Assembly (NCBI GenBank): GCA_041649475.1 | Contig: JBAZNA010000001.1 | Span: forward strand, 197,022 to 261,021 | Direction: 5' to 3' | Source: Patescibacteria group bacterium | GTDB lineage: Bacteria > Patescibacteriota > Patescibacteriia > Magasanikbacterales > GWA2-37-8 | DNA length: 64,000 nt | In this document: piece by piece, positions 10,047-56,556 of the stretch | Layout: each line of letters opens with the position of its first letter | Position numbering within the stretch: the stretch's first letter is position 1 | Position numbers and translations under genes: made by a program | The notes under the pieces: generated by a model | Seen by the model: only the letters and a program-made list of their open reading frames with translations | What the model was told of the DNA's origin: nothing | Database searches by the model: none

Positions 10047-10075
10047 TTGACAAAAAAATATTTTTAGTGTATTCT
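10047..10075 (+). promoter_or_regulatory. candidate promoter of GC-rich gene 1 (TTGACA-N17-TATTCT)
   Basis: The -35 hexamer is perfect and the -10 is moderate. The 5' UTR is about 70 nt and contains small hairpins. Confidence 0.4.
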
Positions 10076-10149
10076 TGGTGATTATTCCTTAGGTAAGGAA
10101 GCCCGGACCATTCCGGTTCGGGTATGATGATAGAGGAAGGAGAAAAAAG

Positions 10150-10497
10150 ATGGGAATGCGCGCGAAGGACTGGGAGGCGGCCCAGGCCGTTTTCTTGAAA
10201 GAGGCCGGTGCCGACCCTGACCCCGACGATTCGTGGACCGTAGTTCGGTCGCCGAGTTTGCAGGAGCTTCTGCTGGCAAAGGAGCAGGAGTTCCCGGTTG
10301 AGCTCGAGCTCTCCGACGGCCGCAAGATGACCGTGTTCGTCGAGGATATCAAGGACCCCGACGCGCACGGCGAAGTGGAGGTGTACGTAATGTACGTCGC
10401 CAACGGCAACCGGCGCCGGCGGTACCTGCACTTCACCCCCGACGTCTACGAGCCCAGGGTCAACGTCTACCCCGAGCCCAAGGAATCCGTGGGCTGA
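10150..10497 (+). CDS. GC-rich orphan protein 1 (115 aa, acidic, no recognised domain)
   Basis: AGGAG lies 7 nt before the ATG. Hand count gives 38/60 G+C in the first 60 nt. Third codon positions in this frame are overwhelmingly G/C. The gene has its own promoter and terminator. Confidence 0.65.
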   Translation: MGMRAKDWEAAQAVFLKEAGADPDPDDSWTVVRSPSLQELLLAKEQEFPVELELSDGRKMTVFVEDIKDPDAHGEVEVYVMYVANGNRRRRYLHFTPDVYEPRVNVYPEPKESVG

Positions 10498-10520
10498 CCC
10501 CACTTCCTCCCTCGTCTCAC

Positions 10521-10548
10521 GCCCAAGCATCTGCTTGGGCCTTTTTTT
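10521..10548 (+). terminator. intrinsic terminator
   Basis: Hairpin gcccaagc-atct-gcttgggc followed by cttttttt. Confidence 0.8.
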
Positions 10549-10549
10549 G

Positions 10550-10578
10550 TTGATTTTGTTATGGCTTTCGGGTAAGAT
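10550..10578 (+). promoter_or_regulatory. candidate dnaE promoter (TTGATT-N17-TAAGAT)
   Basis: The -10 ends only 9 nt before the dnaE ATG, which implies a very short leader or none. Confidence 0.4.
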
Positions 10579-10587
10579 ACGAGCACT

Positions 10588-13500
10588 ATGCCCGACTTTG
10601 TTCACCTCCATGTCCACAGCCATTATTCGCTTTTAGATGGCCTGCCAAAAATTGACGAGCTAGTTAAGCATGCCAAAAGTTTGGGCATGACTGCCCTTGC
10701 CCTCACCGATCATGGTAATATGTATGGCGCCATTGAGTTTTATGAGCGGTGTCAGAAAGAGGGAATAAAACCGATCATCGGCATGGAGGCATACTTGGCT
10801 CCGGGCAGTCGTTTTGATAAAAATCAAAATGACAAGTATTATCATCTGGTGTTGTTGGCTTTGGATTATACCGGTTATAGAAATTTGATGAAGCTGGCTT
10901 CGCTGGCTCATCTGGAGGGGTTCTATTACAAACCCCGTGTTGATAAAGAACTTCTAAAACAATATCATGAAGGTTTGGTTGCTTCATCTGCCTGTTTTGG
11001 CGGCGAGATTCCTTGGATTTTGCGCAAAGAAGATAATTTTGAGAAAGCCAAAAAAGTGGCGTTGGAATACGAAGAAATTTTTGGCAAAGGAAATTTTTAT
11101 CTGGAACTGCAGGACTTGCCGGGTTTGGAAGGTCAGATGGAGATGAATACAAAATTAATTAAGCTTTCCCAAGATACTGGCGTCCCGCTTATTGTCACCC
11201 GTGACGTGCATTATTTGAAACCGGAGGACGCCGAAGCCCAGGATATTTTAACCTGCATCCGCGACGGCCGGACTTTGGATGAACCCAATCGCCAGACCAT
11301 GAATGCGGTTGATTGTTCAATGGCTAGCGTCAAAGAAATCGCCGGCCGCTTTAAACATATTCCTGAAGCATTGGAGAACACGGTTAAGATTGCCGAAAGA
11401 GCGAATCTGGTTTTAGAACTTAATAAATGGCATTTTCCGCCTCTTGAGCTTCCGGTCGGGCAGACCGCCGACAGTTATTTGCGCGAGCAGGTTTATGAAA
11501 GATTGCCGAAGCTGTTGCAGATAACCGAGGAGGTGAAAAAAAGAGTTGACTATGAGTTGGAAATTATCGCCAAAAAAGGTTATTCTCCGTATTTTTTAAC
11601 AGTTGCCGATTATGTGCAGTATGCGCGCGACCACGGCATTGCCGAAACGACCAGGGGCTCGGCTGCTGGTTCAATCGTTTCTTACGCTATAGGAATCGTC
11701 ACTGTTAATCCGCTGTATTTCAAATTGCCGTTTGAAAGATTTTTAAATCCATTCCGTCCCAGCCCGCCGGATATTGACGCGGACTTCGCCGACGACCGCC
11801 GCGACGACATGATTGCTTATGTCACGCAAAAATATGGTGCGGACAAAGTGGCGCAGATTATTACCTTCGGAACGATGATGGCGCGCGGAGCGGTGCGCGA
11901 TGTGGGCCGAGCGCTGGGCTATACCTATTCTTTTTGCGATCAGATTTCAAAAATGATTCCTTTTGGCGCGCAGGGTTTTCACATGAATATTGCCAAAGCC
12001 ATGGAGCTGGAGCCGGATTTAAAAAAATTATACGATCAAAATCCGCAAGCCCACCGTTTATTGGATTTGGCGCAAAAAGTGGAGGGCTGCGCCCGACACA
12101 CTTCCATACACGCGGCCGGAGTGGTGATTTCACCGACGCCGCTTACGGATTTTACTCCGGTTCAGCGCGAAACCGGCGGTGAGAGAATTACCACTCAATA
12201 TGAAATGCACGCGGTGGAGGCGGCTGGAGTTTTGAAAATGGACTTTTTGGGGATCCGCAATTTATCTATTTTGGGTCATGCCGTGGAAATTATAGAAAAA
12301 ACAACCGGCCAGAAAATTGATATCTACAAATTGCCCTGGGATGACAAAAAAACCTATGAAATGCTGGCGCGCGGTGAAACTATCGGTGTGTTCCAGCTTT
12401 CCGGATCTGGCATGACCAGATATTTGAAAGAATTAAAGCCGGCCAGCATCTTTGATATTATGGCCATGGTGGCACTGTTTCGCCCCGGGCCAATGGAATC
12501 AATTCCCGAATATATAAAAAGAAAAAATCATCCGGAACTGATTGAATATCTTGATCCGCGCATGGAAAATTATCTTGATCAGTCCCTGGGCTTGATTGTT
12601 TATCAGGACGACGTTTTGCTTACGGCTATAAATTTGGCCGGATACAATTGGGAGGAAGCGGATAAATTCAGAAAAGCGATGGGCAAGAAAATTCCGGAAG
12701 AAATGGCCAAGCAGAAAGAGAAATTTTTTAAGGGCTGCCGTGAATTCGGGCATTTGTCCGAAGCAAAAATCAACACCCTGTGGGAACGCATTGAGCCGTT
12801 TGCCGCTTATGGTTTTAACAAGGCCCATGCCTGCAGTTATGGAGTTGTGGCCTATCAGACCGCCTATCTGAAAGCTAATTTTCCGGTGCAGTATATGACC
12901 GCGATTTTGATTGCGGAAAGCGGCGACATTGATAAAGTGCCGGAAATTATTCATGAGTGCGAGAGAATCGGCATAAAGGTCTTACCGCCCGATGTTAATG
13001 AAAGTTTTAAAAATTTCGCCATGATTTCGCCGGAAGACGGATCCGAGCCGCACATTAGGTTCGGTTTAAACGGCATAAAAAATCTGGGCGAGCATATTGC
13101 CGAAGTGATTTACCGCGAACGCAAAGAACATGGCACGTATAAAGACCTGCAGGATTTGCTCACGCGTGTAAATGATAAGGATTTAAACAAAAAGTCCCTG
13201 GAAAGTTTGGCTAAATGTGGCGCGCTTGATTGTTTTGGCCATGACCGGGGATTGCTTTTGGCCAACACGGACAACCTTTTGGGTTTTGTCAGGCAGATGC
13301 ATGAGAAAACCCAATCAAACCAGAATTCGCTTTTTTCAGGCACAACGATTGATTTGTCCGCCAAAGTTCAGCTTAATCCGGCGCCCCTGGCCGATGAAGC
13401 CGACAAGCTGATTTGGGAAAAAGAATTGCTGGGACTCTTCGTCACTTCCCATCCATTTAAGTATTTTGAAAAAATTATGAACGGCGTGCTGACACCGATT

Positions 13501-14055
13501 AAGGACTTGCCCAATCAGCCGCGCAACAGCCGGGTGGTGGTGGGCGGATTTATTGATTCCACCAAGAAAAAAATTACCAGAAGCGGCAAGGCGATGATGT
13601 TCGCCAAAATTCAGGATCTAAGCGGTGGGTTGGAACTTTTGATTTTCCCGCGCACCTTTGAAACCACCAAAGATGTTTGGCAAGAAGGAAAACCGGTTTG
13701 CGTGGTGGGCAAGACATCAGAAGAAGAAGGGGATGACAAACTGTTTGTGGACCGGGCGTATATTTTAACCAAAGAAAACGCGGCTACGCTGGCCATGCAA
13801 ATGAATATCAATCAGGGTGCGCCGTCTTTGCGCCAGTATGCGCCGAATTTTGTCAGTCCGGAAGAAGAGGGCTTTGAAGTTGTGGTCAGCCCGGCCAAGA
13901 TAAAAACCGAATCAGATAATATTAAAAAAATTCTAGGGAGGTATCCGGGCGATAAGGTGGTGTATATAAAAGTGGGGAATAAAAAAATAAAAAGCGGCTA
14001 CCGGGTGGACGGCTGCACAGAGTTGAAAGAAGAACTTAAACAATTTTCCAATTAG
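10588..14055 (+). CDS. dnaE: DNA polymerase III alpha subunit
   Basis: 1155 aa with an N-terminal PHP domain (HLHVHSHYSLLDG), a polymerase core and a C-terminal OB fold. Confidence 0.95.
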   Translation: MPDFVHLHVHSHYSLLDGLPKIDELVKHAKSLGMTALALTDHGNMYGAIEFYERCQKEGIKPIIGMEAYLAPGSRFDKNQNDKYYHLVLLALDYTGYRNLMKLASLAHLEGFYYKPRVDKELLKQYHEGLVASSACFGGEIPWILRKEDNFEKAKKVALEYEEIFGKGNFYLELQDLPGLEGQMEMNTKLIKLSQDTGVPLIVTRDVHYLKPEDAEAQDILTCIRDGRTLDEPNRQTMNAVDCSMASVKEIAGRFKHIPEALENTVKIAERANLVLELNKWHFPPLELPVGQTADSYLREQVYERLPKLLQITEEVKKRVDYELEIIAKKGYSPYFLTVADYVQYARDHGIAETTRGSAAGSIVSYAIGIVTVNPLYFKLPFERFLNPFRPSPPDIDADFADDRRDDMIAYVTQKYGADKVAQIITFGTMMARGAVRDVGRALGYTYSFCDQISKMIPFGAQGFHMNIAKAMELEPDLKKLYDQNPQAHRLLDLAQKVEGCARHTSIHAAGVVISPTPLTDFTPVQRETGGERITTQYEMHAVEAAGVLKMDFLGIRNLSILGHAVEIIEKTTGQKIDIYKLPWDDKKTYEMLARGETIGVFQLSGSGMTRYLKELKPASIFDIMAMVALFRPGPMESIPEYIKRKNHPELIEYLDPRMENYLDQSLGLIVYQDDVLLTAINLAGYNWEEADKFRKAMGKKIPEEMAKQKEKFFKGCREFGHLSEAKINTLWERIEPFAAYGFNKAHACSYGVVAYQTAYLKANFPVQYMTAILIAESGDIDKVPEIIHECERIGIKVLPPDVNESFKNFAMISPEDGSEPHIRFGLNGIKNLGEHIAEVIYRERKEHGTYKDLQDLLTRVNDKDLNKKSLESLAKCGALDCFGHDRGLLLANTDNLLGFVRQMHEKTQSNQNSLFSGTTIDLSAKVQLNPAPLADEADKLIWEKELLGLFVTSHPFKYFEKIMNGVLTPIKDLPNQPRNSRVVVGGFIDSTKKKITRSGKAMMFAKIQDLSGGLELLIFPRTFETTKDVWQEGKPVCVVGKTSEEEGDDKLFVDRAYILTKENAATLAMQMNINQGAPSLRQYAPNFVSPEEEGFEVVVSPAKIKTESDNIKKILGRYPGDKVVYIKVGNKKIKSGYRVDGCTELKEELKQFSN

Positions 14056-15034: not shown

Positions 15035-15079
15035 ATTTTTCGCAATACCGAATTTCCTATTTAGAAACTCGGTATTACG

Positions 15080-15101
15080 GAGGAAGACGTGTGTCTTCCT
15101 C
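15080..15101 (-). terminator. 9-bp GC-rich hairpin downstream of GC-rich gene 2 (no clear U-tract)
   Basis: gaggaagac-gtgt-gtcttcctc, 17 nt after the stop codon. No T-run follows it. Confidence 0.35.
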
Positions 15102-15117
15102 GACTCCTTATGTCTCC

Positions 15118-15564
15118 TTATGGCCAGTTGAGTTCCGCCGGCATAGGCCAATCACTGGCGTCGAAACTCACGAATCCCGGCGTCCATTTGAACTTGGACG
15201 CTTCTCCCGGACCAGAAGTGCCCGTGAGCTCGTGAATTTTTTTAGAACTGAGCACCTTGAGCGGCGACATCTCTTTCGGCTCCGGGCTATCGATAGTGGC
15301 CTGGAGAGAATAACCAATCCCTTTCGTGGGATTGTAGAGGAGAAGTTGCGTGGCGACTTTTGCCCGTTTGTGCTCAAGGCAGTCCCACACCATCTTCAAG
15401 AGCGGCTTCTCCACTACGACCACAGGTTCATTATCCTCTGCAGTCAGAGCTGGGAATACACCCATCAGTCCGTGTTCGATCAGCAGTAGGTAACCGTACC
15501 GAAGCTGCCATCCGCTCAGATCCTTTTCGAAGATGCTTCCCAGCGCCGGTCCTTGTTTGCTCAT
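15118..15564 (-). CDS. GC-rich orphan protein 2 (148 aa, no recognised domain)
   Basis: GGAGG lies 5 nt before the ATG at 15564 (MSKQGPALG...). The track start at 15576 is a TTG that overlaps the SD. The gene begins 33 nt after the tRNA-Met 3' end. Confidence 0.6.
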   Translation of the reverse strand: MSKQGPALGSIFEKDLSGWQLRYGYLLLIEHGLMGVFPALTAEDNEPVVVVEKPLLKMVWDCLEHKRAKVATQLLLYNPTKGIGYSLQATIDSPEPKEMSPLKVLSSKKIHELTGTSGPGEASKFKWTPGFVSFDASDWPMPAELNWP

Positions 15565-15597
15565 GGTTTCCTCCAAGATCGAGATCGTTTTCCCGAG

Positions 15598-15671
15598 TGT
15601 CAGGGGAGGGAGTCGGACCCTCGACCTTAGGGTTATGAATCCTACGCTCTTACCAACTGAGCTACCCTGAC
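15598..15671 (-). tRNA. tRNA with CAU anticodon (elongator Met or lysidine-Ile2)
   Basis: Hand-folded cloverleaf with acceptor GTCAGGG/CCCTGAC, anticodon loop TTCATAA and T arm GAGGG-TCCGACT-CCCTC. CCA is not encoded. Confidence 0.9.
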
Positions 15672-18014: not shown

Positions 18015-18020
18015 ATATAA

Positions 18021-18055
18021 AGATCCTGTTGCTTCGCAAGCAGGATCTCTTTTTC
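18021..18055. terminator. bidirectional intrinsic terminator
   Basis: agatcctg..caggatct stem with an inner ttgc/gcaa extension, followed by a T-run. It sits between convergent genes. Confidence 0.75.
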
Positions 18056-18073
18056 TCCTTTCACATTATCCTT

Positions 18074-18400
18074 TCACAGGACCACTTCTTCGTAGTAGTC
18101 GGCCCGCTCGTGGCTAGCGTAGGGGCTTGATTTGGCATCCTTGAGCGCAGCTGCGGCGAACGGTTCGTCTATGGTGACCTCGGCAACGTTCTCGCACTTG
18201 GCGATCAACAGCTGACAACCATCACAGCCGAATCCGGTCACGGTTGCCAGAACCAGCGCCTCCTTGATCTTCGGTACCCGGCCCTCTTTGCGGATGGCTT
18301 CGGCCACATCGGCCGCGTTTTCTCCACCGCAGTCGGTCCAGAACTTGAAAACAACCTCATCACCCTTGCGCACACTAACGAGTCCGGTTTTTCCGTGCAT
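18074..18400 (-). CDS. GC-rich orphan protein 3 (108 aa; contains a CDGC CxxC motif)
   Basis: AAGGAGG lies 6 nt before the ATG, and the SD starts on the stop codon of the upstream low-GC oxidase gene (cctAAGGAGGggtgatATG). G+C rises abruptly at this junction. Confidence 0.6.
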   Translation of the reverse strand: MHGKTGLVSVRKGDEVVFKFWTDCGGENAADVAEAIRKEGRVPKIKEALVLATVTGFGCDGCQLLIAKCENVAEVTIDEPFAAAALKDAKSSPYASHERADYYEEVVL

Positions 18401-25865: not shown

Positions 25866-25903
25866 TAAAAAAAGAGGCAATTCCACCGGCGGCAGAACTG
25901 CCT
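25866..25903 (-). terminator. intrinsic terminator of GC-rich gene 4
   Basis: On the minus strand: aggcagttc-11 nt loop-gaattgcct followed by cttttttt. Confidence 0.65.
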
Positions 25904-25928
25904 TGAAACCTTCTTCTGGTCTTCCTCC

Positions 25929-26282
25929 TTAGGTGTCAACCGTCTCCACCGGAGGGTTGGGCACTGTTGGCCCCCAGAGAGGGACGAATTCCGTGCTCTG
26001 GAAGTTCTTGCGACACAACTCTTCAAGACCAGGGGTATCGCCATCGTAGATGACCCGGGAGGCCGTAATCACGGCCCGATCCTGCTTGGACCCGAACCCC
26101 ATCTGGGCGGCCAAGTTGTAGGCGTTCCTAGCCGAAGGGGCTTCACCGTTTTTTTGCACTTCCGCGCGAATTGCGTCAGCAAAACGCTTGGTGAGATTGC
26201 CGCCGCGGCCAACCACAACTTTCATCAAAACCACGTCGCCTCGGAAAACGATGACCATTCCCGGAACAGCAGTCGTGGACAT
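25929..26282 (-). CDS. GC-rich orphan protein 4 (117 aa; N-terminal block similar to orphan 3)
   Basis: AAGGAGG lies 7 nt before the ATG. The gene has its own promoter and terminator. It shares 13 of 33 ungapped identities with the 18074..18400 product. Confidence 0.65.
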   Translation of the reverse strand: MSTTAVPGMVIVFRGDVVLMKVVVGRGGNLTKRFADAIRAEVQKNGEAPSARNAYNLAAQMGFGSKQDRAVITASRVIYDGDTPGLEELCRKNFQSTEFVPLWGPTVPNPPVETVDT

Positions 26283-26318
26283 GGAGAATCCTCCTTATCG
26301 CAAACAAAGCGATGTTCA

Positions 26319-26347
26319 ATTTTAACATGGGAATTTGCCAGTGTCAA
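26319..26347 (-). promoter_or_regulatory. promoter of GC-rich gene 4 (TTGACA-N17-TAAAAT)
   Basis: rc reads ttgaca ctggcaaattcccatgt taaaat. Confidence 0.6.
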
Positions 26348-26361
26348 GATTCGTAAATAAC

Positions 26362-29473: not shown

Positions 29474-29504
29474 AAAAAAAGAGCTTCCCTGGGGAGGGAA
29501 GTTC
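29474..29504 (-). terminator. intrinsic terminator of GC-rich gene 5
   Basis: On the minus strand: gaacttccct-cccc-agggaagctc followed by ttttttt. Confidence 0.75.
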
Positions 29505-29580
29505 AGTGGGGGTTGGCTCCGGTGTGATCGCCTGATGGCGAATTGGAGCACGGTAGGAAAGAGCAGGGCGGGGCGGCTGG

Positions 29581-29922
29581 CTAGCCGGCGGCGGAAGCGG
29601 CGATGGGGGCGATCTTGGGCTGGATGTCGATCACGGGGATCGGCTCGGGCAGACCGTCGAAGCGCTGGCGGAGCCAGTCGATCTCGGGCTCCGAGGCCTC
29701 GCCCATGAAGATCTCGATGTAGAACGTCCCCCTGATGAGGCCCTCGTACTTCAGCTTGAAGCCGGGGATCTCGTCGTCGAAGTCGGCCTTGTGCGGCCTG
29801 TTGACGTACCTGTTGAAGTCGTTGAGCGAGCAGTACCTGACGCTGCCGTCCACGAACTGGATCCGTACGGCCCTTGTCTGCAAGGTCGTGTCCGGGAACG
29901 TCATCAGCTTCTGGATCGGCAT
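29581..29922 (-). CDS. GC-rich orphan protein 5 (113 aa, no recognised domain)
   Basis: AAGGAG lies 6 nt before the ATG at 29922 (MPIQKLMTFPD...). The longer track ORF start has no SD. Confidence 0.6.
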   Translation of the reverse strand: MPIQKLMTFPDTTLQTRAVRIQFVDGSVRYCSLNDFNRYVNRPHKADFDDEIPGFKLKYEGLIRGTFYIEIFMGEASEPEIDWLRQRFDGLPEPIPVIDIQPKIAPIAASAAG

Positions 29923-30037
29923 CTCCCTCTCCTTGGGACTACGAGCTCGTGTGACCATCTTGTTATGCCTCCCTTGTTTCCGTGTTGGGCCCAATGCCCC
30001 TAAACTTGTTGGCCTTGTCCAGGCCGTGATGGGCTAA

Positions 30038-40004: not shown

Positions 40005-41795
40005 ATGAATAATGAAAAATTGGAAATCATGAGGCATAGCTGCGCTCATTTGGTGGCGGCGGCTGTTTATGAGCTTTATCCGGACGCAAAGTTCGGCGTC
40101 GGGCCGGTGGTGGAAAACGGCTTTTATTATGATATAGATTTTAAGAAGCCAATCGGTGAAGCTGATTTGGAAAAGATTGAAGCCAAAGCCGGGGAATTGG
40201 CCAAAAAAGATCTAAAATTTGAACGCCAGGAGATGTCTCTTGATGAAGCGATTAAATTTTTCAAAAAAGAAAAACAGGATTATAAGGTTGAGCTTTTGCA
40301 GGATTTAAAAAAGCACGGCACCACCAACCTGAAAGACGTTGAAGAAATGAAAGATATGGATGTAAAAAATGTTTCTTTGTATAAAACTGGGGAGTTTGTT
40401 GATTTGTGCCGCGGACCGCACATCAAGTCCAGCAAGGAAATCGGCGCATTTAAAATCACCAAATTGGCCGGGGCTTATTGGCGCGGTAAAAATGAAAATC
40501 CGCAACTACAAAGAATTTACGGCGTTTGTTTTGCCAAAACATCCGAGCTTGAAGAGTATTTACACATGATGGAGGAGGCGGAGAAAAGAGATCACAGAAA
40601 GATTGGTCAGGAACAGAAATTATTTTTTATTGATGATTTAGTCGGCAAGGGCTTGATCATGTGGCAGCCGAATGGAACAATTATTAGAAATGAAATTGAA
40701 AAATTGGCGGTGGAAGAGGAAAACAAAGGCGGATACGTGCGCGTGGTGACTCCGCACATGGCCAAAGAGGAATTGTATTTAACTTCCAAACACTTGCCAT
40801 ATTACAAAGACAGCATGTATCCGGCCATGACAATGGATGACGGTGTGTATTATTTAAGAGGTATGAATTGTCCGCATCACCATTTGATTTACCGGCACGA
40901 AATGCGCAGCTATAGGGACTTGCCAATCAGAATTGCCGAGTATGGTACTGTTTATAGGAATGAATTGTCCGGAACTCTGGCTGGACTGCTTCGGGTGCGC
41001 GGATTGGCCATGAACGATGCTCATATTTATTGCCGCAAGGATCAAATCAAATCCGAATTTAAAGCCGTGATGGAGCTGACAATGAAATATTTTGACATTT
41101 TTGGGATGAATGACTATTGGTTCAGATTATCAAAATGGAGTCCAAAACATTTGGAAAAATATATCAATGAGCCGGCCAATTGGGAATATGCTCAAAATAT
41201 AATCAGGGAGGTCTTGGATGAAATGAAAGTTAAGTATGTTGAAATAGACGACGAAGCGGCATTTTATGGCCCGAAGGTGGATGTTCAATTAAAATCGGTA
41301 ATTGGCAGGGAAGAAACCATGTCAACCATTCAGCTGGATTTTGTTGCTAAGCAGAGATTTGGCTTGGCCTATACGGACGAGACCGGTAAAGAGAATAATG
41401 AGGTCTTTGTGATTCATCGCGCTCCACTTTCCACTCATGAAAGATTCATGGCGTTTTTAATAGAGCACTATGCCGGCAGTTGGCCGGTTTGGCTGTCTCC
41501 GGTTCAGGTTTTGCTGGCGCCGGTTTCAGAAAAACATGTTGACGGTGCAAAAAAGTTGGCCAAAGAATTGTTTGAAGTCGGAATTCGCGTAGAAATTGAT
41601 GATGCCAATGAAACGATTGGCAATAAAGTGCGCAAGGCCGTGGAACGGAAGATCCCATATATTGTGGTGGTGGGTGATAAAGAGTTGGGCGGGGAGGATT
41701 GGATGATTAGAGTGAGAGGACAGAAGGAGCAAGTGAAGATGTCAAAGGATGAATTTGTTAAAAAAGTAGCTGATGAAATAAGTAAAAGAAAGTAG
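40005..41795 (+). CDS. thrS: threonine--tRNA ligase (no TGS domain)
   Basis: It starts MNNEKLEIMRHSCAHL (N2 editing domain HxxxH). Class II motifs and the anticodon-binding domain are present. The track ORF begins 12 nt earlier at a TTG. Confidence 0.93.
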   Translation: MNNEKLEIMRHSCAHLVAAAVYELYPDAKFGVGPVVENGFYYDIDFKKPIGEADLEKIEAKAGELAKKDLKFERQEMSLDEAIKFFKKEKQDYKVELLQDLKKHGTTNLKDVEEMKDMDVKNVSLYKTGEFVDLCRGPHIKSSKEIGAFKITKLAGAYWRGKNENPQLQRIYGVCFAKTSELEEYLHMMEEAEKRDHRKIGQEQKLFFIDDLVGKGLIMWQPNGTIIRNEIEKLAVEEENKGGYVRVVTPHMAKEELYLTSKHLPYYKDSMYPAMTMDDGVYYLRGMNCPHHHLIYRHEMRSYRDLPIRIAEYGTVYRNELSGTLAGLLRVRGLAMNDAHIYCRKDQIKSEFKAVMELTMKYFDIFGMNDYWFRLSKWSPKHLEKYINEPANWEYAQNIIREVLDEMKVKYVEIDDEAAFYGPKVDVQLKSVIGREETMSTIQLDFVAKQRFGLAYTDETGKENNEVFVIHRAPLSTHERFMAFLIEHYAGSWPVWLSPVQVLLAPVSEKHVDGAKKLAKELFEVGIRVEIDDANETIGNKVRKAVERKIPYIVVVGDKELGGEDWMIRVRGQKEQVKMSKDEFVKKVADEISKRK

Positions 41796-41815
41796 CTTTT
41801 AATAAAAAGAAAAAA

Positions 41816-41839
41816 GCACCCATTACCGGGTGTTTTTTT
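41816..41839 (+). terminator. intrinsic terminator after thrS
   Basis: gcaccc-attacc-gggtgt followed by ttttttt. Confidence 0.65.
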
Positions 41840-41855
41840 ATCCCCAGGTTTACCC

Positions 41856-41884
41856 TTGACCAATTGTCTTTTTTATGCTAAAGT
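41856..41884 (+). promoter_or_regulatory. promoter of GC-rich gene 6 (TTGACC-N17-TAAAGT)
   Basis: ttgacc aattgtcttttttatgc taaagt. The 5' UTR contains the hairpin cctgcc-agagaaa-ggcagg. Confidence 0.55.
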
Positions 41885-41931
41885 ATGTGGTTCCTGCCAG
41901 AGAAAGGCAGGTCAGAAAGGAGGCCTCTCGG

Positions 41932-42312
41932 ATGACACGGGTCATGAGTTTGATGGCTTTCTACGCGACTTATCGTCTCTTAAAGGTCGCGTACCGTGCG
42001 ACCGAGAGACAGCTTAGGCTATTCTTCGTCCCCAAGCCGGGGTGCGAGGGGGCCTACGAGGTGGATGAGCAAATCTTCGCCAAGGTTCGGACGCTCATCG
42101 TCAATTCCAGGTCGTTTCAGACCGAAATCTACCCGCTGAACGCCAGTGACGTGGGGGAAGATTTCCGCCTTGGCGACCAGGATTTCACCGGCTCGGTGAT
42201 GGTCTGGCTGAAGGAAGTAGATCCTTTAGACGCACTGTTTACCGACAGAATCAAGGAGGTTGTGTTCGGAGAGGAGAAAGAGTATCGCTTTCAGTGCGGT
42301 TCCCGCAACTAG
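41932..42312 (+). CDS. GC-rich orphan protein 6 (126 aa, no recognised domain)
   Basis: AAGGAGG lies 8 nt before the ATG at 41932 (MTRVMSLMAFY...). The earlier track start lies inside the promoter. Confidence 0.6.
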   Translation: MTRVMSLMAFYATYRLLKVAYRATERQLRLFFVPKPGCEGAYEVDEQIFAKVRTLIVNSRSFQTEIYPLNASDVGEDFRLGDQDFTGSVMVWLKEVDPLDALFTDRIKEVVFGEEKEYRFQCGSRN

Positions 42313-42406
42313 CATCTGGGCGCTCATCTTCACTCCTCTCCGGGCGCCTTTACTACTTGGACTCGGATTGGTATAATATATTTACTAAAATTTAATTTTA
42401 TATCAT

Positions 42407-42973
42407 ATGTTAAGCGAAGCATCAGCAAGAGCGGCAAAAGCCAGACAATTTCGCGCTAAAAATGCTGAAGTAACCGTACCTCATAGAGAGGCCGCCAGAA
42501 AACTTAAAGCCCAGATGAAGGAAGAAAAACAGGCAACAGCAAGAAATATGGTTCGTGAGGAAATTGAAACTTTGGCTGACAAATTGGAGGCGGAAGGAGA
42601 TAAAGCAATAAATGGAGTTTTAGGCACCATAATTGAAAATGGCGATGTTGATGATTTGGATGTTTTAAAAATGTTAGACGGTTTCTGTTATCTGAAAAGA
42701 ACAGAATTAGAACATGACAAAGTTGATAGAAGTATTTTGATGAGAGATGATACCTTGAGGGCGCAGGTGAAAAAAGCTTTAGAAAATTATAGCACCGGTG
42801 TTAAAAACCAAAAGAAAATTTTTGACGCCAGTGCGGGATTTGAAACCGGAAAGGAATACGCGCTTAAAGAAGGTGAAGACGCCATCAATGAACTTATGAG
42901 CCGGGCCCGTCAAAATATTGACGGTTTGATAACCGACAGAATCAACGAGATGGCTAACGAAGGAAAAAATTAA
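42407..42973 (+). CDS. hypothetical helical protein
   Basis: 188 aa, charged and helical. The extended -10 TGgTATAAT is at 42369..42377. The stop overlaps the miaB start (TAATG). Confidence 0.5.
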   Translation: MLSEASARAAKARQFRAKNAEVTVPHREAARKLKAQMKEEKQATARNMVREEIETLADKLEAEGDKAINGVLGTIIENGDVDDLDVLKMLDGFCYLKRTELEHDKVDRSILMRDDTLRAQVKKALENYSTGVKNQKKIFDASAGFETGKEYALKEGEDAINELMSRARQNIDGLITDRINEMANEGKN

Positions 42974-44286: not shown

Positions 44287-45174
44287 CTAAAGTTTGATAC
44301 TTTTGAGAGATATTTTTAAATATAAATTTGAAGTCTTGTTTATTAAGAATTTTAATGTTTTGGGCAATACCCTGTCTAATAATGCAAGAAACGAGATAGT
44401 ATATATTAAGGTTAAAAAATTATTTTTAAGTATCGTGATTATAAAATTTGGTTTATAATCCATCTTCCAGAATATTATATAAAGAATAAAATGTAATATG
44501 CAGAAGAATGCTATTGGCCAGAATGGAGCTTTAAAACCAAGTAGATCCCATTTTTCTGGCTCACCGAATTGGTTATTACTTTCGGGCGAGTTATAAATTT
44601 TATCATTCTTCATAATCCTTGACCAAATATCAGTGAATTTGGTTCCAGATATTATAAGTAGTAACCATTGAAAGCAGTCAGATATAAATTTTATAATATC
44701 GGTTATAATTACCCTCCAAAATAATAATTTTAACCTAAGTTTAAAACCCTTTAGTGGCATGGTTGGTTTTGTATGAAGCAAGTATAGCTCGTCGAGTAAC
44801 ATATTTGCTGTTATTTCTTTATTTTTTTTATAAAATTTGTTCAAGATAACATCATAAAAATACTCATCATTTGAAGTAAAATCTATCGGGCCAGTAACTT
44901 TTTTTATTTTATCTTGGTTACTCAATGATATGTAAGATCCTTTGTCATCTTCTTTAAGTTTTCCATAGCTAACCCTTATGGATAGGGGTTTAATGTTGCC
45001 ATCCTTCAGTACATTTTCATTACTGATGTAAATATAGAATATTGATCCCCAATCGTCTGAACCCATTTTTCTAATTATACTAAAGCCAAATTTGCAATCT
45101 TTTAAAGGAGTGAGATTCAAAAATAATCCATTAGTTCCTATATTAAAATCTTTTATGAAATCTTGATTTTCCAT
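44287..45174 (-). CDS. very AT-rich orphan membrane protein (295 aa)
   Basis: Hand count gives 12/60 G+C in the first 60 nt. It has a soluble N-terminal half and then 3-4 predicted TM helices. No motif recognised. Confidence 0.55.
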   Translation of the reverse strand: MENQDFIKDFNIGTNGLFLNLTPLKDCKFGFSIIRKMGSDDWGSIFYIYISNENVLKDGNIKPLSIRVSYGKLKEDDKGSYISLSNQDKIKKVTGPIDFTSNDEYFYDVILNKFYKKNKEITANMLLDELYLLHTKPTMPLKGFKLRLKLLFWRVIITDIIKFISDCFQWLLLIISGTKFTDIWSRIMKNDKIYNSPESNNQFGEPEKWDLLGFKAPFWPIAFFCILHFILYIIFWKMDYKPNFIITILKNNFLTLIYTISFLALLDRVLPKTLKFLINKTSNLYLKISLKSIKL

Positions 45175-51572: not shown

Positions 51573-51574
51573 AA

Positions 51575-52720
51575 TTATAAGTTAGTCACTATATTTAACC
51601 AGTTTTTGGCTGTAATTGTCCAGTTGAACTTGGTTGCCTGGGTCAGGCCTTTATTTTTAAAATACATTTTTAGATCGGTGCTGTTTAAGATTTTAATCAT
51701 GGCTTCGGCAAGAGAGCTGGTATCGGTTGGGTTGGTTAGCAGAGCTGCACCCTCGGTGATTTCCGGCAGTGAAGATCGGTTTGAGGTAATAACCGGCGTG
51801 CCCTCGGCCATAGCTTCTATTACCGGAAAGCCAAAACCTTCATAAAAACTGGGAAAGACAAATAATTCCGCCGCTTTATAAAGGGCGGGTTTGTCGGCCG
51901 AGTCAACGTAATCAATAAATTTTATCTGATCTTTAATTGGCGATGATTTTATTCTTTGAAAAATATGTTTATAGCGCCAACCCCTGGCGCCGGCAATCAC
52001 TAAAGAGCAGGGGAAAGCCAATTTTGGGAAAGCTTTCTCATAGGCCTCAATCAAGCCGATAATGTTTTTACGCGGTTCAAGAGTGCCTAAAAATAGGATA
52101 AATTTTTCCGGGAGATTATATTTTTGTTGGATATTTTGCGTGCCATTTGTGGAGGTATTAAAATTAGAATCCAAGCCCGGATATAAAGTTTTAATCTTTT
52201 CTCCGGCTATGGCGTATTTTTCCACTATGTCTTTTTTGGTATTTTCCGATGGCGTCAGAATTACATTTGCTTGTTCGCATTGTTTTTTAGCGTTGACTAT
52301 TTTATGCCAGAGGCGTTGTTTTAAAGAATAAAAATCAGGAAAAAATTCAAAAGACAAGTCGTGAATGGTAAGAATTATTTTTGTTTTATTGGCGAGCGAG
52401 GTGAAGTTAATGTTGGGCGAATAAAAAATATCAATGTTTTGCCTGGAAATCTTGGTTATCAGTTTATCCAGTCGCGGCCGTTTAAATACTTGTAAAGAAA
52501 AGTTAAATAATTTATTGGGCCATCTGGTGGTCACAAAATGCACGTTGTTTTGCTCCCACTTCGGGATAAATTTTGAAACATCAGCATGCGAATTATAAAA
52601 AAGAAAATATTGATTATTTTTATCAATTTCAAAAATAGCGTTGAGGAGTCCGTAGGTATACTCGCCAACGCCGGTGCGAACTAGTGACATTAACGGGCGG
52701 ATGTCTATGCCGATATTCAT
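51575..52720 (-). CDS. glycosyltransferase family 4 (GT-B)
   Basis: EGFGFPVIEAMAEGTPVI motif. Confidence 0.85.
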   Translation of the reverse strand: MNIGIDIRPLMSLVRTGVGEYTYGLLNAIFEIDKNNQYFLFYNSHADVSKFIPKWEQNNVHFVTTRWPNKLFNFSLQVFKRPRLDKLITKISRQNIDIFYSPNINFTSLANKTKIILTIHDLSFEFFPDFYSLKQRLWHKIVNAKKQCEQANVILTPSENTKKDIVEKYAIAGEKIKTLYPGLDSNFNTSTNGTQNIQQKYNLPEKFILFLGTLEPRKNIIGLIEAYEKAFPKLAFPCSLVIAGARGWRYKHIFQRIKSSPIKDQIKFIDYVDSADKPALYKAAELFVFPSFYEGFGFPVIEAMAEGTPVITSNRSSLPEITEGAALLTNPTDTSSLAEAMIKILNSTDLKMYFKNKGLTQATKFNWTITAKNWLNIVTNL

Positions 52721-52785
52721 AAGCGAAATGAGTGAGAGAAATGAAATTATTTATAATTTCATTTCCGAACGAATGAGCTTATATC

Positions 52786-53130
52786 TTAATATAACTTTTT
52801 GTAACTTTCAAAATGTATCTTATCGTCTGTAAAAATTTCTATAACTTTATACTTTCCCTTAGTATAGCTTTCATTATCTTGTTTAAAATGTGTTGCCTCA
52901 ATTATGATTATGCCGGCCTTTGGTTTGGAGAGGTTTTCATTACCGGTTGTTTCAAGGAGCGGCAGTTCGCCATCCAGCCAATACAAACGTTGTCCCTTTT
53001 TTAAAAATGGATAGATCTCTCCGGTAATCAATTTTTCCGGAATGCACTCTTCAATTTTACGATTTCCAGCACGATATTCAGAAATATTTCGCAGGGCCAG
53101 ATCAGGATTAAATTCAAATTTAATACCCAT
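52786..53130 (-). CDS. hypothetical protein (AT-rich) inside the glycosyltransferase cluster
   Basis: 114-aa ORF with no motif. A perfect 12-bp palindrome (gaaatgaaatta/taatttcatttc) lies just downstream at about 52739..52766. Confidence 0.45.
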   Translation of the reverse strand: MGIKFEFNPDLALRNISEYRAGNRKIEECIPEKLITGEIYPFLKKGQRLYWLDGELPLLETTGNENLSKPKAGIIIIEATHFKQDNESYTKGKYKVIEIFTDDKIHFESYKKLY

Positions 53131-53134
53131 ATAA

Positions 53135-54256
53135 TTATTTTATTAAAACTTCCTGGTTCATGCCTTTTTTAAATTCCTCATGTCTGTCATTAATCTTTTT
53201 TTTGAAATTATTTTTAAAATTATTTACGTCAAATTTCAGAGCATGTTCGCGGATTTTGGCGCTGTCCCAATTTTCAAAATTAAAATTTAATAGGGCATCT
53301 AAAAGCGATTCCCAGCTTTGGCTGTGGAAAAATTTACCGGTTTCATTGGAGATAACCGTTTCCGTGGCTCCGCCTTGGCAGTAGGCGATTACCGGTCGGC
53401 CGCTGGCCATTGATTCAATGGCAGTGATGCCAAAATCCTCCAGTTGAGGATGAATATATGCTTTGGCACGGCTAAGCAGATCGGCTTTGGCCGTTTCCGA
53501 GATTTGTTCCAAAAATTCAATATTCGGTTTGGCTATTTTTTTTAAGGTTGATAATTCCGGACCGGTGCCAAAAATTTTAAGCGGCCAGCGCAGACGATTA
53601 AAAGCTTTAACAATTAAATCCGTGCGTTTATAAGGCACAAGTCGTCCGCCGGCTACAAAATAATCGCCGATGTTGGGTTGAATTTTGAAGTTTTGGGTGT
53701 CAACCGGCGGATAAATAACTTCGCTTTCGCGGCGGTAGTATTTATGGATTCTTTGTTGGACTGTTTTTGAGTTGGCTATAAAATAATCAACTCGGTCAAC
53801 ACTCATTTTATCCCAGATGCGCAAGTTATGGACCATGCCCGGTAAGAACAGTTTTATTAATCCATTTTGCCGCAGGTCGGAAATATATTCGCGATGATCG
53901 GCCCATAAAAATCTGGGCGGAGTGTGGCAGTATGAAATATGGAGAGTGCCGGGCGGGGTAATTACGCCTTTGGCAAACACGCTTGAGGTTGAAATAACCA
54001 CATCAAATCCATTCAGGTCTTGGCTTTCCGTGGCCACCGGCATCCAGGGTAAGTACCATTGGTAGCTGGTTCGGCCAAAAGGCAAACGGGCCAAAAAGGT
54101 CTCTTTGATATTTTTATCAGGAAAAGAAGTGATTTTTTTCTTGTTATGAAATAAAACAAAAATCGGCGCTTCCGGCCAGATTTCATGCATGGCTTTTAGC
54201 ACTCTTTCGGCCCCTCCATCTTGTGCCAGATAATCGTGAACAAGCGCGATTTTCAT
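53135..54256 (-). CDS. glycosyltransferase family 4 (GT-B)
   Basis: EDFGITAIESMASGRPVI motif. Confidence 0.85.
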   Translation of the reverse strand: MKIALVHDYLAQDGGAERVLKAMHEIWPEAPIFVLFHNKKKITSFPDKNIKETFLARLPFGRTSYQWYLPWMPVATESQDLNGFDVVISTSSVFAKGVITPPGTLHISYCHTPPRFLWADHREYISDLRQNGLIKLFLPGMVHNLRIWDKMSVDRVDYFIANSKTVQQRIHKYYRRESEVIYPPVDTQNFKIQPNIGDYFVAGGRLVPYKRTDLIVKAFNRLRWPLKIFGTGPELSTLKKIAKPNIEFLEQISETAKADLLSRAKAYIHPQLEDFGITAIESMASGRPVIAYCQGGATETVISNETGKFFHSQSWESLLDALLNFNFENWDSAKIREHALKFDVNNFKNNFKKKINDRHEEFKKGMNQEVLIK

Positions 54257-54261
54257 ATTTT

Positions 54262-55680
54262 TTATAGGGAGCCGGTTTTTCTGATGACAACAAAAGGTGT
54301 TTTAATTAGAATTATGAGATCTAAAAATAAACTCCAGTTTTCTATATAAAATGTGTCCAGCTTTATTTCTTCTTCATAGCTTAAATTGCTGCGTCCGGAA
54401 ATTTGCGCCAAGCCGGTGATACCGGGTTTGATTTCTAAAACTATTTTATGCTTTCTTTCGTAATTTTCAACCTCCCGGGGCTGGTGCGGACGCGGGCCGA
54501 CCAAACTCATTTCACCTTTGAACACATTAAAGAATTGTGGCAATTCGTCTATGCTCCAGCGGCGGATAAACCGGCCAAACGGAGTGACACGCGGGTCATT
54601 TTTGATTTTGTAAATCGGACCGTTTTTTATGCTTTGTTTTTTGATCAGTTCCTGTTCTTTGGCCAAAGCCACGGTGGAAGCTTTTTTGCCAAACTGAATG
54701 CCGTTTGAATCTTTTTGATACATTGATCGAAATTTTAGCGTGAAGAATTTTTTATCGGCTTTGCCGACTCTTTCATTTTTGTAAATCACCGGCCGGCCGG
54801 TTTCAATTAAAATTATTAAAGAGATAATTAAATAAATTGGAGAGAGGATAATTATAAAAAATATACTGCCGATAATATCTATTAGTCGTTTGAAAATTCT
54901 GCCCCAACCCGTCAGCCGCGTTAAGCGCAGTTCAATAATCGGAATGCCGGTGATGGTGGAAACGGCCATGTTGGTGGAAATGGTTGAAAACAAATCAGCT
55001 GAATATTTGAAAGCGATGTGATGTTCGTTGGCAAAATCAATTGCTTCCAACGCCTCTTTTTCATTAGCTTTCGGATCCGTAAAAATTATTTCGTCCGGTT
55101 TTAGTTTTAAAATTGTTGGTTCGCTGGCGACATCAAAACCATCGTAGGTGGCCACCACTTTATAGCCAAATGACTTGTTGAGTAGTGATTGCTTGATTTC
55201 CTGGCCGATAATTTCTTTGCCGATAATAATTGTGCGGCGTAGTCCTACGCCGGCTTTGTGTAGCCAGATTTTTAAACCGGCGGTGAGGATGCGCCCCAGT
55301 GACACAAAGATAATGGCTAAAATCCAACCGACCAAAACCAAAAATCTGGAATCAAATTTTTGCAAGGTGAAAAAAACATAAATGGTGATGCCGGCAAAAC
55401 CGGTGGCGGTGGCCATGACCACTCGGGTGAGATCGCGGGCGAGCTTGCGGTTGGGGTTGGTGCTATATAACCCGGATAAAGCAAAAATAATAATCCAGGC
55501 CGCGGCTGTAAGCAAGACCAATGGCCAGTATCTTTGCCAGGAAAGATTAAACAAAACCGGCCGGATGGCTTTGGCAAAATCAGCAAAGCGAAGCGTGTAG
55601 GCAGTAAAGCCGGCCAGTATCAGCAGGGCAAAGTCAAGAGGAAGTTGGAGTAAGGTAAAAAAGAGTTCAAATTTTTTCAT
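54262..55680 (-). CDS. polyprenyl-phosphate glycosyl-phosphotransferase (bacterial sugar transferase, WbaP-like)
   Basis: Multi-TM N-terminus and a C-terminal sugar-transferase domain (DELPQFFNVFKGEMSLVGPRP). I moved the start to MKKFELFF at 55680. The 115-codon extension in the track is antisense to the GC-rich island. Confidence 0.85.
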   Translation of the reverse strand: MKKFELFFTLLQLPLDFALLILAGFTAYTLRFADFAKAIRPVLFNLSWQRYWPLVLLTAAAWIIIFALSGLYSTNPNRKLARDLTRVVMATATGFAGITIYVFFTLQKFDSRFLVLVGWILAIIFVSLGRILTAGLKIWLHKAGVGLRRTIIIGKEIIGQEIKQSLLNKSFGYKVVATYDGFDVASEPTILKLKPDEIIFTDPKANEKEALEAIDFANEHHIAFKYSADLFSTISTNMAVSTITGIPIIELRLTRLTGWGRIFKRLIDIIGSIFFIIILSPIYLIISLIILIETGRPVIYKNERVGKADKKFFTLKFRSMYQKDSNGIQFGKKASTVALAKEQELIKKQSIKNGPIYKIKNDPRVTPFGRFIRRWSIDELPQFFNVFKGEMSLVGPRPHQPREVENYERKHKIVLEIKPGITGLAQISGRSNLSYEEEIKLDTFYIENWSLFLDLIILIKTPFVVIRKTGSL

Positions 55681-55734
55681 AGTTGTGGGCGCGGTGCGCT
55701 TAGGTTGAGTATATTTTACGCCAACTGCCCAACA

Positions 55735-55763
55735 TTGACAAGAGAGCTGTTTTAGTGTTAATT
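55735..55763 (+). promoter_or_regulatory. candidate promoter of GC-rich gene 7 (TTGACA-N17-TTAATT, with TG upstream)
   Basis: Its -35 hexamer overlaps, on the opposite strand, the -35 of a TTGTCA-N17-TAAAAT promoter (55713..55741) that faces the sugar-transferase gene. Confidence 0.45.
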
Positions 55764-55838
55764 TAACGTGCTGTGGCGAAACCATTCTGGCCAAGCCCGA
55801 CAGCGTCTGTAAACACGGTCGTATAAAGGAGACAAAAC

Positions 55839-56504
55839 ATGGCGACCGCAAAACAGATTCCGTTTTTGATGGGAAGGTTGGTGGAGCATCAGTTTTACTT
55901 CTGTGCTTTGTCCACCGCAAGCGCCACGTGGGCGAGCCAAAACCCGAAAGACGCCATTGCCTTGTGCGTGGCGGCGATCGAGAATCGCCAAAAGGAGCGT
56001 CAGTCCGACCCGGCGCCTTCGCCACTCCTCACCTTGGTCGGTGCCGTCGTGATCTGGCTGGCCGTGAGGTTCGTTGCCAGTGAACACCTGGTGAAGAATA
56101 CCGAGAAGAACGCGCCGGTGAAGATTTCCTACATCTTCGATAAGGTCACCGTGTGGTTCCAGGGCAAGATCGAGGAGCGGGTCGAGGGCGAGATGGCTCT
56201 GTGCTGCCATACCCTGAACTCCGACTCGGACGATAACCTCATCATCAACCAGCTCGGCGGCGAGACCAAGGCCGAGACCGCCCTTGCCGAGGTCTTTGCC
56301 TGCTTGGAGAAGCAACCCAACGGCGAGGATGGTGCGCTACTCACTAACGGCCACGCGAACATCTTCTATGTTCGCAACACCGAAGGTGTGTTGTGCGTGA
56401 TCCAAGTGATCTGGCGCGGTGACGGTTGGACCTTCTACACCCGTTCGGTCGGTTCTCTGGACACATGTACCGAGGGCCGCCGGGTGTTCTCCCGCGCCGC
56501 ATAG
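55839..56504 (+). CDS. GC-rich orphan protein 7 (221 aa; one hydrophobic segment LLTLVGAVVIWLAVRFVA)
   Basis: AAGGAG lies 7 nt before the ATG. A strong terminator follows the gene. No recognisable domain. Confidence 0.6.
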   Translation: MATAKQIPFLMGRLVEHQFYFCALSTASATWASQNPKDAIALCVAAIENRQKERQSDPAPSPLLTLVGAVVIWLAVRFVASEHLVKNTEKNAPVKISYIFDKVTVWFQGKIEERVEGEMALCCHTLNSDSDDNLIINQLGGETKAETALAEVFACLEKQPNGEDGALLTNGHANIFYVRNTEGVLCVIQVIWRGDGWTFYTRSVGSLDTCTEGRRVFSRAA

Positions 56505-56524
56505 TTTGTTCCTTCCTTCCAAGC

Positions 56525-56556
56525 GCCCCGCCTGTCAGATGGTGGGGCATTTTTTT
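56525..56556 (+). terminator. intrinsic terminator
   Basis: gccccgcc-tgtcagat-ggtggggc followed by attttttt. Confidence 0.8.

Follow-up and report, generated by a model that had tools for sequence, protein, structure and literature searches.

Seven GC-rich genes dispersed in a Magasanikbacteria genome: probable accessory islets of mixed kind, with one putative variable protein of the retroelement-diversified type

Seven GC-rich genes among core genes

The stretch of DNA considered here, called the window throughout, comprises 64,000 nucleotides from the genome of an ultra-small Patescibacteria bacterium of the order Magasanikbacterales (assembly GCA_041649475.1, contig JBAZNA010000001.1, positions 197,022 to 261,021) and has a G+C content of 43.5 %. 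Dispersed among its core genes are seven small open reading frames (ORFs), numbered c1 to c7 in order of position, whose base composition departs from that of everything around them. An earlier note made from the bare letters had described these genes as sharply richer in G+C than their surroundings, with third codon positions that are mostly G or C, and computation bears out both statements. The remaining 51 ORFs of the window have a mean GC of 0.423 (standard deviation 0.038, maximum 0.481) and a mean GC at third codon positions (GC3) of 0.444 (standard deviation 0.063, maximum 0.566), whereas c1-c7 span 0.537-0.635 in GC (z 3.0-5.6) and 0.617-0.965 in GC3 (z 2.7-8.3). The seven genes and the signals attached to them are as follows (SD, Shine-Dalgarno site; aa, amino acids).

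c1, 10150-10497 (+), GC 0.635, GC3 0.853: acidic protein of 115 aa; unit 10047-10550 (+), with a promoter-like site at 10047-10075 (TTGACA-17-TATTCT), an SD and a terminator hairpin at 10521-10540 followed by a T-run
c2, 15118-15564 (-), GC 0.537, GC3 0.617, the weakest outlier: 148 aa; 33 nt behind tRNA-Met (15597-15671; promoter-like site of the tRNA at 15709-15681)
c3, 18074-18400 (-), GC 0.581, GC3 0.679: 108 aa; unit 18015-18400 (-); start 11 nt past the stop of the FAD-oxidase gene; hairpin downstream at 18021-18048
c4, 25929-26282 (-), GC 0.576, GC3 0.669: 117 aa; unit 25875-26347 (-), with a promoter-like site at 26347-26319 (TTGACA-17-TAAAAT with TG) and a terminator at 25903-25875
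c5, 29581-29922 (-), GC 0.629, GC3 0.965: 113 aa; unit 29484-30034 (-) in the divergent infB/truB gap, with a GC island at 29487-30034 and a terminator-like hairpin at 29501-29484
c6, 41932-42312 (+), GC 0.543, GC3 0.717: 126 aa; unit 41856-42312 (+), with a promoter-like site at 41856-41884 (TTGACC-17-TAAAGT with TG)
c7, 55839-56504 (+), GC 0.589, GC3 0.784: 221 aa; N-terminal helical region and C-terminal domain of ~160 aa

The start of c5 differs among gene callers, others beginning upstream to give 125 aa, and the 3' end of c2 abuts or overlaps the start of tsaD. The neighbours that had been named for the seven genes are all confirmed, namely the DUF948 gene, dnaE, tRNA-Met, tsaD, the FAD oxidase, HU, a type IV pilin gene, truB, infB, thrS, miaB, the sugar transferase and rnpB.

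A GC of at least 0.537 is reached by 0.05 % of 350-nt windows when c1-c7 and rnpB are excluded, and a two-state GC segmentation of the window recovers five of the seven genes, c2 and c6 being the weaker outliers. The excess lies mainly at third codon positions and mainly within the coding region: GC at first, second and third positions amounts to 0.54/0.39/0.97 in c5 and 0.68/0.37/0.85 in c1. Hand counts given in the earlier note, 38 of 60 at the start of c1 and 21 of 60 at the start of pheT, are exact; its jump in GC within a few nucleotides is found as a sharp step at some gene edges, and no step exists at the 5' ends of c2, c6 and c7. Stacks of overlapping ORFs on both strands are indeed seen in the ORF list at these GC-rich places. 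Each of the seven regions displays strong three-base periodicity in a single frame, and codon choice is shifted relative to core genes (AAG 0.69 vs 0.21, GAG 0.72 vs 0.27, CTC 0.31 vs 0.06). The composition and codon usage of c1-c7 are outside the distribution of the other genes in the window.

All seven genes have an AGGAG-type SD located 5-8 nt before the ATG, as had been claimed. Own promoters had been attributed to five of them; a consensus scan backs a dedicated promoter for c1, c4 and c6 only, so that this count was overstated. Terminator-like hairpins follow c1, c4, c5 and c7. The genes are not uniformly insulated either, as c2 sits 33 nt behind a tRNA and the promoter of that tRNA and c3 follows 11 nt after a stop codon. 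The promoter of rnpB at 56566-56594 (+) and that upstream of rny at 28591-28563 (-) match each other over 29 nt with 90 % identity (TTGACA-17-TATAGT with TG), in keeping with the shared -35 element noted earlier.

c1-c7 are real protein-coding genes, as indicated by codon periodicity, the SD sites and the conservation of frame and length in the orthologues of c4 and c6. Across the whole window Rfam at gathering thresholds identifies only rnpB and three tRNAs, and no RNA family at c1-c7. The concern that the junctions might stem from a chimeric assembly is answered by independent assemblies: the same context is found for c7 in one from the same sample (L085), for c6 in one from another sample (L099) and for c4 in those from three further samples (L101-L103). 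Here and below, L-numbers denote contigs or loci of relatives or homologues and P-numbers homologous proteins. In view of the single-frame periodicity, the codon shift, the Rfam result and the reproduced contexts, misassembly and non-coding readings are very unlikely.

Homologues and rates of change

No match for any of c1-c7 was obtained in Pfam, NCBIfam, PHROGs, PADLOC or the sequences of the PDB. The earlier remark that the products contain no recognisable motif is accurate as far as these collections go and fails for c7, which homology places in a family of variable proteins treated in the next section. An all-against-all comparison of the seven proteins yields a single related pair, c3 and c4 (38 % identity over 58 aa, E 1e-7), which are paralogous small alpha/beta proteins. 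A remote relationship of c3 and c4 to HU was rejected, with E values of 0.5-9 only.

Two large collections were searched. An exhaustive HMMER search covered 1.84 billion representatives with c1-c7 as one query, the matches listed for c1-c6 being limited to E < ~1e-23, and a word-seeded search covered 5.8 billion clusters with c1-c5. Among the matches listed in the former, c1, c2, c4 and c5 retrieve only themselves, and c6 has one homologue (P0015, 74 % amino-acid identity). The word-seeded search added one c4 orthologue and nothing more. For c1 and c2 no homologue was detected in either search, and for c3 only its paralogue c4. A tblastn comparison of the seven proteins with 50,697 phage records gave no match; neither did a plasmid collection, except for a homologue of the c7 domain on Bradyrhizobium plasmids.

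Close relatives are represented by contigs of 1.3-2.2 kb, two of which permit evolutionary rates to be read. L099 matches window positions 40863-42792 at 92 % nucleotide identity and carries the c6 orthologue P0015 between thrS and the same downstream gene. Silent divergence (dS) is 0.22 both for c6 and for thrS, and the ratio of amino-acid to silent change (dN/dS) is 0.65 for c6, 0.04 for thrS and 0.13 for the downstream gene. L101 matches positions 26348-25027 at 84 % identity; the homology begins at the c4 promoter and the neighbour upstream differs. In this comparison c4 has a dS of 0.41 and a dN/dS of 0.35, the latter being 0.14-0.16 for the pilin and acyltransferase genes. For c4 and c6 alike, dS is close to that of the neighbours, and GC and GC3 are equal between the window genes and their orthologues. 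The third-position differences between c4 and its orthologue divide 12 vs 13 between GC and AT, a count whose direction is unreadable as there is no outgroup.

Synteny with L101 stops at window position 26348 (L101 position 914), at the -35 element of the c4 promoter, so that the edge of the unit is also a rearrangement breakpoint. In L101 the place of HU, upstream of c4 and the pilin gene, is taken by a divergently oriented gene for a secreted protein of 288 aa.

Inheritance of c4 and c6 among close relatives is vertical. As their orthologues occupy the same context and show neighbour-like dS, at least two of the seven genes are not recent strain-specific insertions. Amino-acid change relative to silent change is 2.5 to 15 times faster in c4 and c6 than in their neighbours: they are constrained yet fast-evolving genes. 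At such a rate, orthologues would no longer be recognised in relatives with core proteins of only 75-85 % identity, and fast evolution may explain much of the orphan status of these genes. At the syntenic infB/truB position, L063 has a distant homologue of c5 (29 % identity, E 6e-7), which likewise lies within a GC island. Directly after it lies a second ORF of 116 aa (L063 7883-8233 (+)) of ordinary composition, which resembles c5 very weakly (phmmer E 2.5) and is at most a possible tandem paralogue in decay.

c7 and a family of variable proteins

Diversity-generating retroelements (DGRs) comprise a reverse transcriptase (RT), usually with Avd, which is typically found within a few kilobases of the target gene. 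The target harbours a variable repeat (VR) whose cognate template repeat (TR) differs from it almost only at TR adenines, and the variable residues are displayed on a C-type-lectin or immunoglobulin-like fold; a GC-rich IMH and a hairpin or cruciform come soon after the VR. A DGR clade restricted to Patescibacteria, clade 2, has been described (PMC8144416).

The HMMER search of the 1.84 billion representatives returned at least 1797 matches to c7 at E<=1e-3 and 866 at 1e-10, with many family members at E values of 1e-24 to 1e-45. The family is found mainly in genomes of the candidate phyla radiation (CPR). Its profile scores c7 at 289 bits, c7 being the only member in the window. Six homologues were placed on contigs (L081, L082, L084, L104, L105 and L106). 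An RVT_1 reverse transcriptase lies within ~2 kb in five of these six loci, three of which also have bAvd; the L105 locus is without RT. In four loci the final ~110-117 nt of the gene, as VR, match a nearby repeat, the TR, and changes from a TR adenine to any base account for 17/17, 21/21, 17/19 and 18/22 of the mismatches. Such TR-adenine-specific mismatches are the signature of DGR mutagenic homing. In the family alignment, hypervariable columns are interspersed between the conserved residues W..GW..V..G..VFSR at the C-terminus. Two features at the 3' end of c7 bear on the comparison.

56385-56500 (+): segment of c7 equivalent to a VR, encoding ...GVLCVIQVIWRGDGWTFYTRSVGSLDTCTEGRRVFSR; alignable to the homologues' variable repeats
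56525-56548 (+): hairpin after c7, with a stem of 8 bp (7 G-C pairs) and a T-run, 21 nt past the c7 stop; the best-scoring terminator-like site

The VR-equivalent segment contains 14 % A, compared with 22 % in the rest of the gene, and position 210 of the protein is Cys where more than 90 % of the family have Trp. A predicted structure model of c7 has a pLDDT of 95.7. On the strength of sequence similarity, c7 can be placed in a DGR variable (target) protein family, as a putative C-type-lectin-like variable protein of the kind diversified by DGRs. A template repeat for its 3' region is absent from the 64-kb window (blastn, word size 7), and profiles made from five CPR DGR RTs and three Avds find neither protein in the six frames of the window (best E 0.07 and 0.3). 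A scan of JGI metagenomes with a degenerate VR/TR pattern matched 13 unrelated contigs and not the source contig. Since TR, RT and Avd are missing from the window, c7 would either serve as remote target for a DGR located elsewhere in the genome or be an orphan comparable to the L105 homologue. The hairpin may serve as an intrinsic terminator, as the recognition hairpin of a DGR target, or in both roles; DGR targets require a GC-rich hairpin 4-34 bp after the VR (PMC3240598). The consensus loop is a 4-nt GRNA.

The composition of c7 is common to its family. Family genes have a GC of 0.52-0.59 and a GC3 of 0.56-0.78 across flanks whose GC ranges from 0.37 to 0.57, while the RT beside them (GC 0.34-0.45) tracks the flank. 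GC-rich targets beside AT-rich RTs are seen in the following cassettes of CPR genomes, in which the GC of the adjacent RT is below that of the local genome.

L081 10001-12470, L104 8001-10530, L106 5532-8016, and likewise L082 and L084: DGR cassettes with a GC-rich target beside an AT-rich RT

Within one cassette, target and RT can lie 20 points of GC apart, a gap for which ancestry hardly accounts and which suggests some property inherent to the target gene.

Several further occurrences of this family and of DGRs deserve mention. P0013 (926 aa) has five tandem c7-type domains and P0014 (379 aa) two, each copy ending in a VR-like ...GW...VFS motif, so that a single protein may present several DGR-diversifiable modules. 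Another Magasanikbacteria genome encodes a DGR-type RT ~10 kb from rny (L026 20258-21430 (-), matching the CPR RT profile at E 1e-155), which shows that the lineage does contain DGRs. The Bradyrhizobium plasmid homologue mentioned above (L100, NZ_CP094524.1 131602-132276) is a hypothetical protein 38.6 % identical to the C-terminal domain of c7; it adjoins a gene for a NYN-domain protein on conjugative plasmids of four Bradyrhizobium strains, with no RT in the gene table, which is incomplete.

Islets in shared gaps, their origin and comparison with known systems

Regions around rny in 80 genomes (~74 of them Magasanikbacteria, 1.2 Mb in all) provide a wider view. A two-state GC model detects ~90 GC-rich islands of 0.2-2 kb, many of which lie in the gap between infB/truB and rny or just downstream of HU, the very gaps that hold c5 and c4 in the window. 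Beside infB, where 55 relatives can be compared, the gap measures <=300 bp in 17 and >700 bp in 22, and 15 have a GC island there; at the c4 gap, the content after HU differs among relatives. Presence is thus patchy at the c5 gap, empty sites included, and content differs at the c4 gap; patchiness was judged at these two places. In relatives, these gaps either stand empty or house different genes, unrelated and likewise atypical in composition. This synteny comparison agrees with the earlier suggestion that the genes form part of the accessory genome, and the pattern is not peculiar to the window, as GC-rich islets occupy the same gaps of related Magasanikbacteria.

The genes found in the islands of relatives are mostly singletons. 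Around one fifth have Pfam domains, including GDH, adenylosuccinate lyase (ADSL), PyrF, PNP and M20 peptidase. ORFs without a homologue in other loci exceed core GC by at least 0.08 in 21 % of cases and fall at least 0.08 below it in 10 %, the corresponding figures for core genes being 1 % and 0 %. A subgroup of Magasanikbacteria carries one to three genes of GC3 0.75-0.97, belonging to two small families, in the infB-rny gap.

L022 7648-9606; L031 1792-3600; L032 5476-9550; L033 7591-9441; L037 7436-9534; L065 7197-9437: GC3-rich genes of the infB-rny gap

All five genes inspected among these code for Cys-rich proteins that bear a signal peptide or lipobox and contain the motif C..C..G.C repeatedly. 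Many contigs with Magasanikbacteria synteny and a 75-83 % identical RNase Y (L006, L007, L011-L014, L016, L017 and others) are labelled 'uncultured Gammaproteobacteria bacterium' and one 'Candidatus Udaeobacter', titles that look like taxonomic mislabels.

As the earlier note had stated, the machinery of mobility is lacking. A Pfam scan of 29 neighbouring ORFs contains no integrase or transposase; direct or inverted repeats and target-site duplications flanking the units do not occur beyond chance; and no shared attC-like inverted-repeat element exists, the hairpins present being short terminators only. A tRNA adjoins c2 only. No donor lineage can be identified: c1, c2, c3 and c5 have no outside homologue, and the homologues of c4 and c6 come from close relatives.

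Other compositional anomalies lie in the window. The ORF at 44287-45174 (-), of 295 aa, is its strongest AT-rich outlier (GC 0.279, GC3 0.280), cited in the earlier note just for contrast; it has no Pfam match, is flanked by near-consensus promoter-like sites and is probably another accessory gene of opposite composition. A 136-nt patch of GC 0.68 (58278-58413) is embedded in a 512-aa ORF without a Pfam match (57040-58578 (-)), and a short GC-rich patch near the 5' end occurs also in the RNase J genes of three relatives (L031, L033 and L041).

The picture is that of a flexible gene pool occupying recombination-tolerant gaps, and the interpretation that is modestly favoured takes c1-c7 as heterogeneous accessory islets drawn from a compositionally distinct gene pool, the flexible and fast-evolving portion of a Magasanikbacteria genome. 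GC-rich, G/C-ending codon usage would mark a pool decoupled in composition from the AT-leaning core genome. Entry or exchange would proceed by recombination without site-specific machinery; the genome has a type IV pilin gene, which might bear on DNA uptake. Expression would rely on local promoters, the genes forming monocistronic units, or on read-through from an upstream gene or tRNA. The products would probably act in interactions with ligands, partners or phages in which rapid change is advantageous; the nature of the c7 family and the raised dN/dS hint at such roles in binding or conflict. Several points weigh against this interpretation. No donor or mobile vector has been identified for any of the seven, and lateral origin is deduced from composition and patchy distribution only. 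The short contigs of close relatives cover c4 and c6 only, and comparative data extend to c4-c7. Moreover, the composition of c7 is a family trait kept beside an AT-rich RT, which fits active maintenance better than foreign ancestry, and the same could hold for the other six.

The alternative built on this last point, tentative and clearly less probable than the islet interpretation, sees c1-c7 as long-resident, fast-evolving genes in which a gene-specific process keeps GC3 up against an AT-leaning genome drift. GC-biased gene conversion at recombination hot spots and codon or mRNA selection are candidate processes; translational selection is an unlikely source of the high GC3, since HU, infB and the small genes of ribosomal type show ordinary values. 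Maintenance is suggested by the constant GC of the c7 family across flanks that the adjacent RT follows, by the unchanged GC and GC3 of c4, c6 and their orthologues after a dS of 0.2-0.4, by the GC islands that surround both c5 and its 29 %-identical syntenic homologue, and by an excess that is mostly third-position and mostly confined to coding regions. However, little amelioration is to be expected over a dS of 0.2-0.4, the direction of the c4 substitutions (12 vs 13) is unreadable for want of an outgroup, and the likeness between c5 and its L063 homologue could come from related donors. AT-rich outliers exist among the orphans too (10 %, and the ORF at 44287-45174 with its GC of 0.279), which suits mixed foreign origins, and the island genes of relatives include ordinary enzymes. 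A broader proposition is more doubtful still: that Magasanikbacteria, and perhaps CPR bacteria generally, hold small, rapidly evolving, singly placed genes far above genome G+C by a gene-specific process, with DGR variable proteins as the clearest example.

Repeated recent capture from a high-GC donor, for instance a host bacterium, had been offered in the earlier note and now appears improbable. GC3 values of up to 0.97 and a codon usage typical of high-GC genomes are what such capture predicts, some islets in the same gaps of relatives look imported (enzymes and Cys-rich lipoproteins with GC3 of 0.85-0.97), and a survey reports frequent horizontal gene transfer (HGT) into Patescibacteria (PMC12455944). 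Yet c1, c2, c3 and c5 have no non-self homologue at E < ~1e-23 in the 1.84 billion representatives nor any in the 5.8-billion-cluster search, and c4 is likewise without a donor-like homologue; a recent transfer would be expected to leave such a homologue if its donor had been sampled. Both c4 and c6 predate the split from relatives (dS ~0.2-0.5) and share the dS of their neighbours, and the c7 family is mainly of CPR genomes and GC-rich in all of them. The GC1 of 0.54 and GC2 of 0.39 in c5 are low for a donor of 65-70 % GC, and phages and plasmids offer no match other than the Bradyrhizobium homologue of the c7 domain.

Less credible still is a single undescribed class of cassettes, such as effector or immunity genes with a common mechanism of insertion or expression. 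In its favour, each of the seven is a small solitary gene with a strong SD, near-consensus promoters and terminators accompany several of them, dN/dS is raised in the two that can be measured (c4 and c6), and islets of this kind turn up in these gaps throughout the lineage. Against such unity, the genes share no sequence, domain or flanking motif and are unrelated save for c3 and c4, their GC3 is spread over 0.62-0.97, only three have a promoter-like site of their own, PADLOC and PHROGs give no matches, the islets of relatives carry unrelated cargo that includes metabolic enzymes, and one member, c7, is of the known DGR type. An artefact, whether a chimeric assembly with foreign fragments or GC-rich structured RNA whose ORFs reflect few stop codons, might account for the stacks of spurious ORFs on both strands that GC-rich DNA produces at these places, rnpB and the tRNAs being GC-rich too, and can practically be set aside given that three sets of junctions recur in independent assemblies (two of them from other samples), periodicity is restricted to one frame with correctly spaced SD sites, orthologues keep the frame with dN/dS <1, c7 has 1797 homologues and a confident model (pLDDT 95.7), and Rfam matches are confined to rnpB and three tRNAs.

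Some wider consequences follow for the reading of these genomes. Compositional outliers in CPR genomes are not to be taken as recent imports from a host, and the gaps at infB/truB and downstream of HU can be listed as hot spots of variation in Magasanikbacteria. The orphan proteins are candidates for interaction with a partner, host or phage. If composition is maintained, GC-richness would mark 'diversifying' genes rather than foreign ancestry; and the constant high G+C of DGR targets beside AT-rich RTs would, if general, need a mechanistic explanation.

Among known arrangements, integron cassettes resemble c1-c7 in being small single-gene units of foreign composition whose function is not known. 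An integron cassette bears attC at its 3' end and has the IntI integrase with attI nearby. c1-c7, in contrast, are dispersed rather than arrayed; neither an attC-like repeat nor, in the scanned ORFs, an integrase occurs, and several of the genes are predicted to have their own promoter. The DGR variable proteins, such as Mtd, TvpA and those of DGR clade 2 (PMC8144416), are a counterpart for only one of the seven genes: c7 is homologous to a family with an RT and VR/TR pairs and is followed by a GC-rich hairpin compatible with a DGR target or a terminator, but it departs from the DGR proteins in the absence of RT, Avd and TR within 64 kb, in a hairpin loop of 8 nt rather than 4 and in the Cys at position 210 in place of the family Trp. 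The genomic islets of streamlined bacteria and the abundant HGT regions and islands surveyed in Patescibacteria (PMC12455944) share with c1-c7 the atypical composition, the patchy presence, the location between conserved core genes and once beside a tRNA, and the mostly hypothetical, fast-evolving products. Unlike these, each of c1-c7 consists of one gene (0.3-0.7 kb) and is free of integrase, transposase and repeats; the bias is towards higher rather than lower GC, no donor is identifiable, and at least two islets are stable across related species. Taken together, c1-c7 are best placed as a new instance of known things, probably flexible-genome islets accompanied by one putative DGR-type variable protein.

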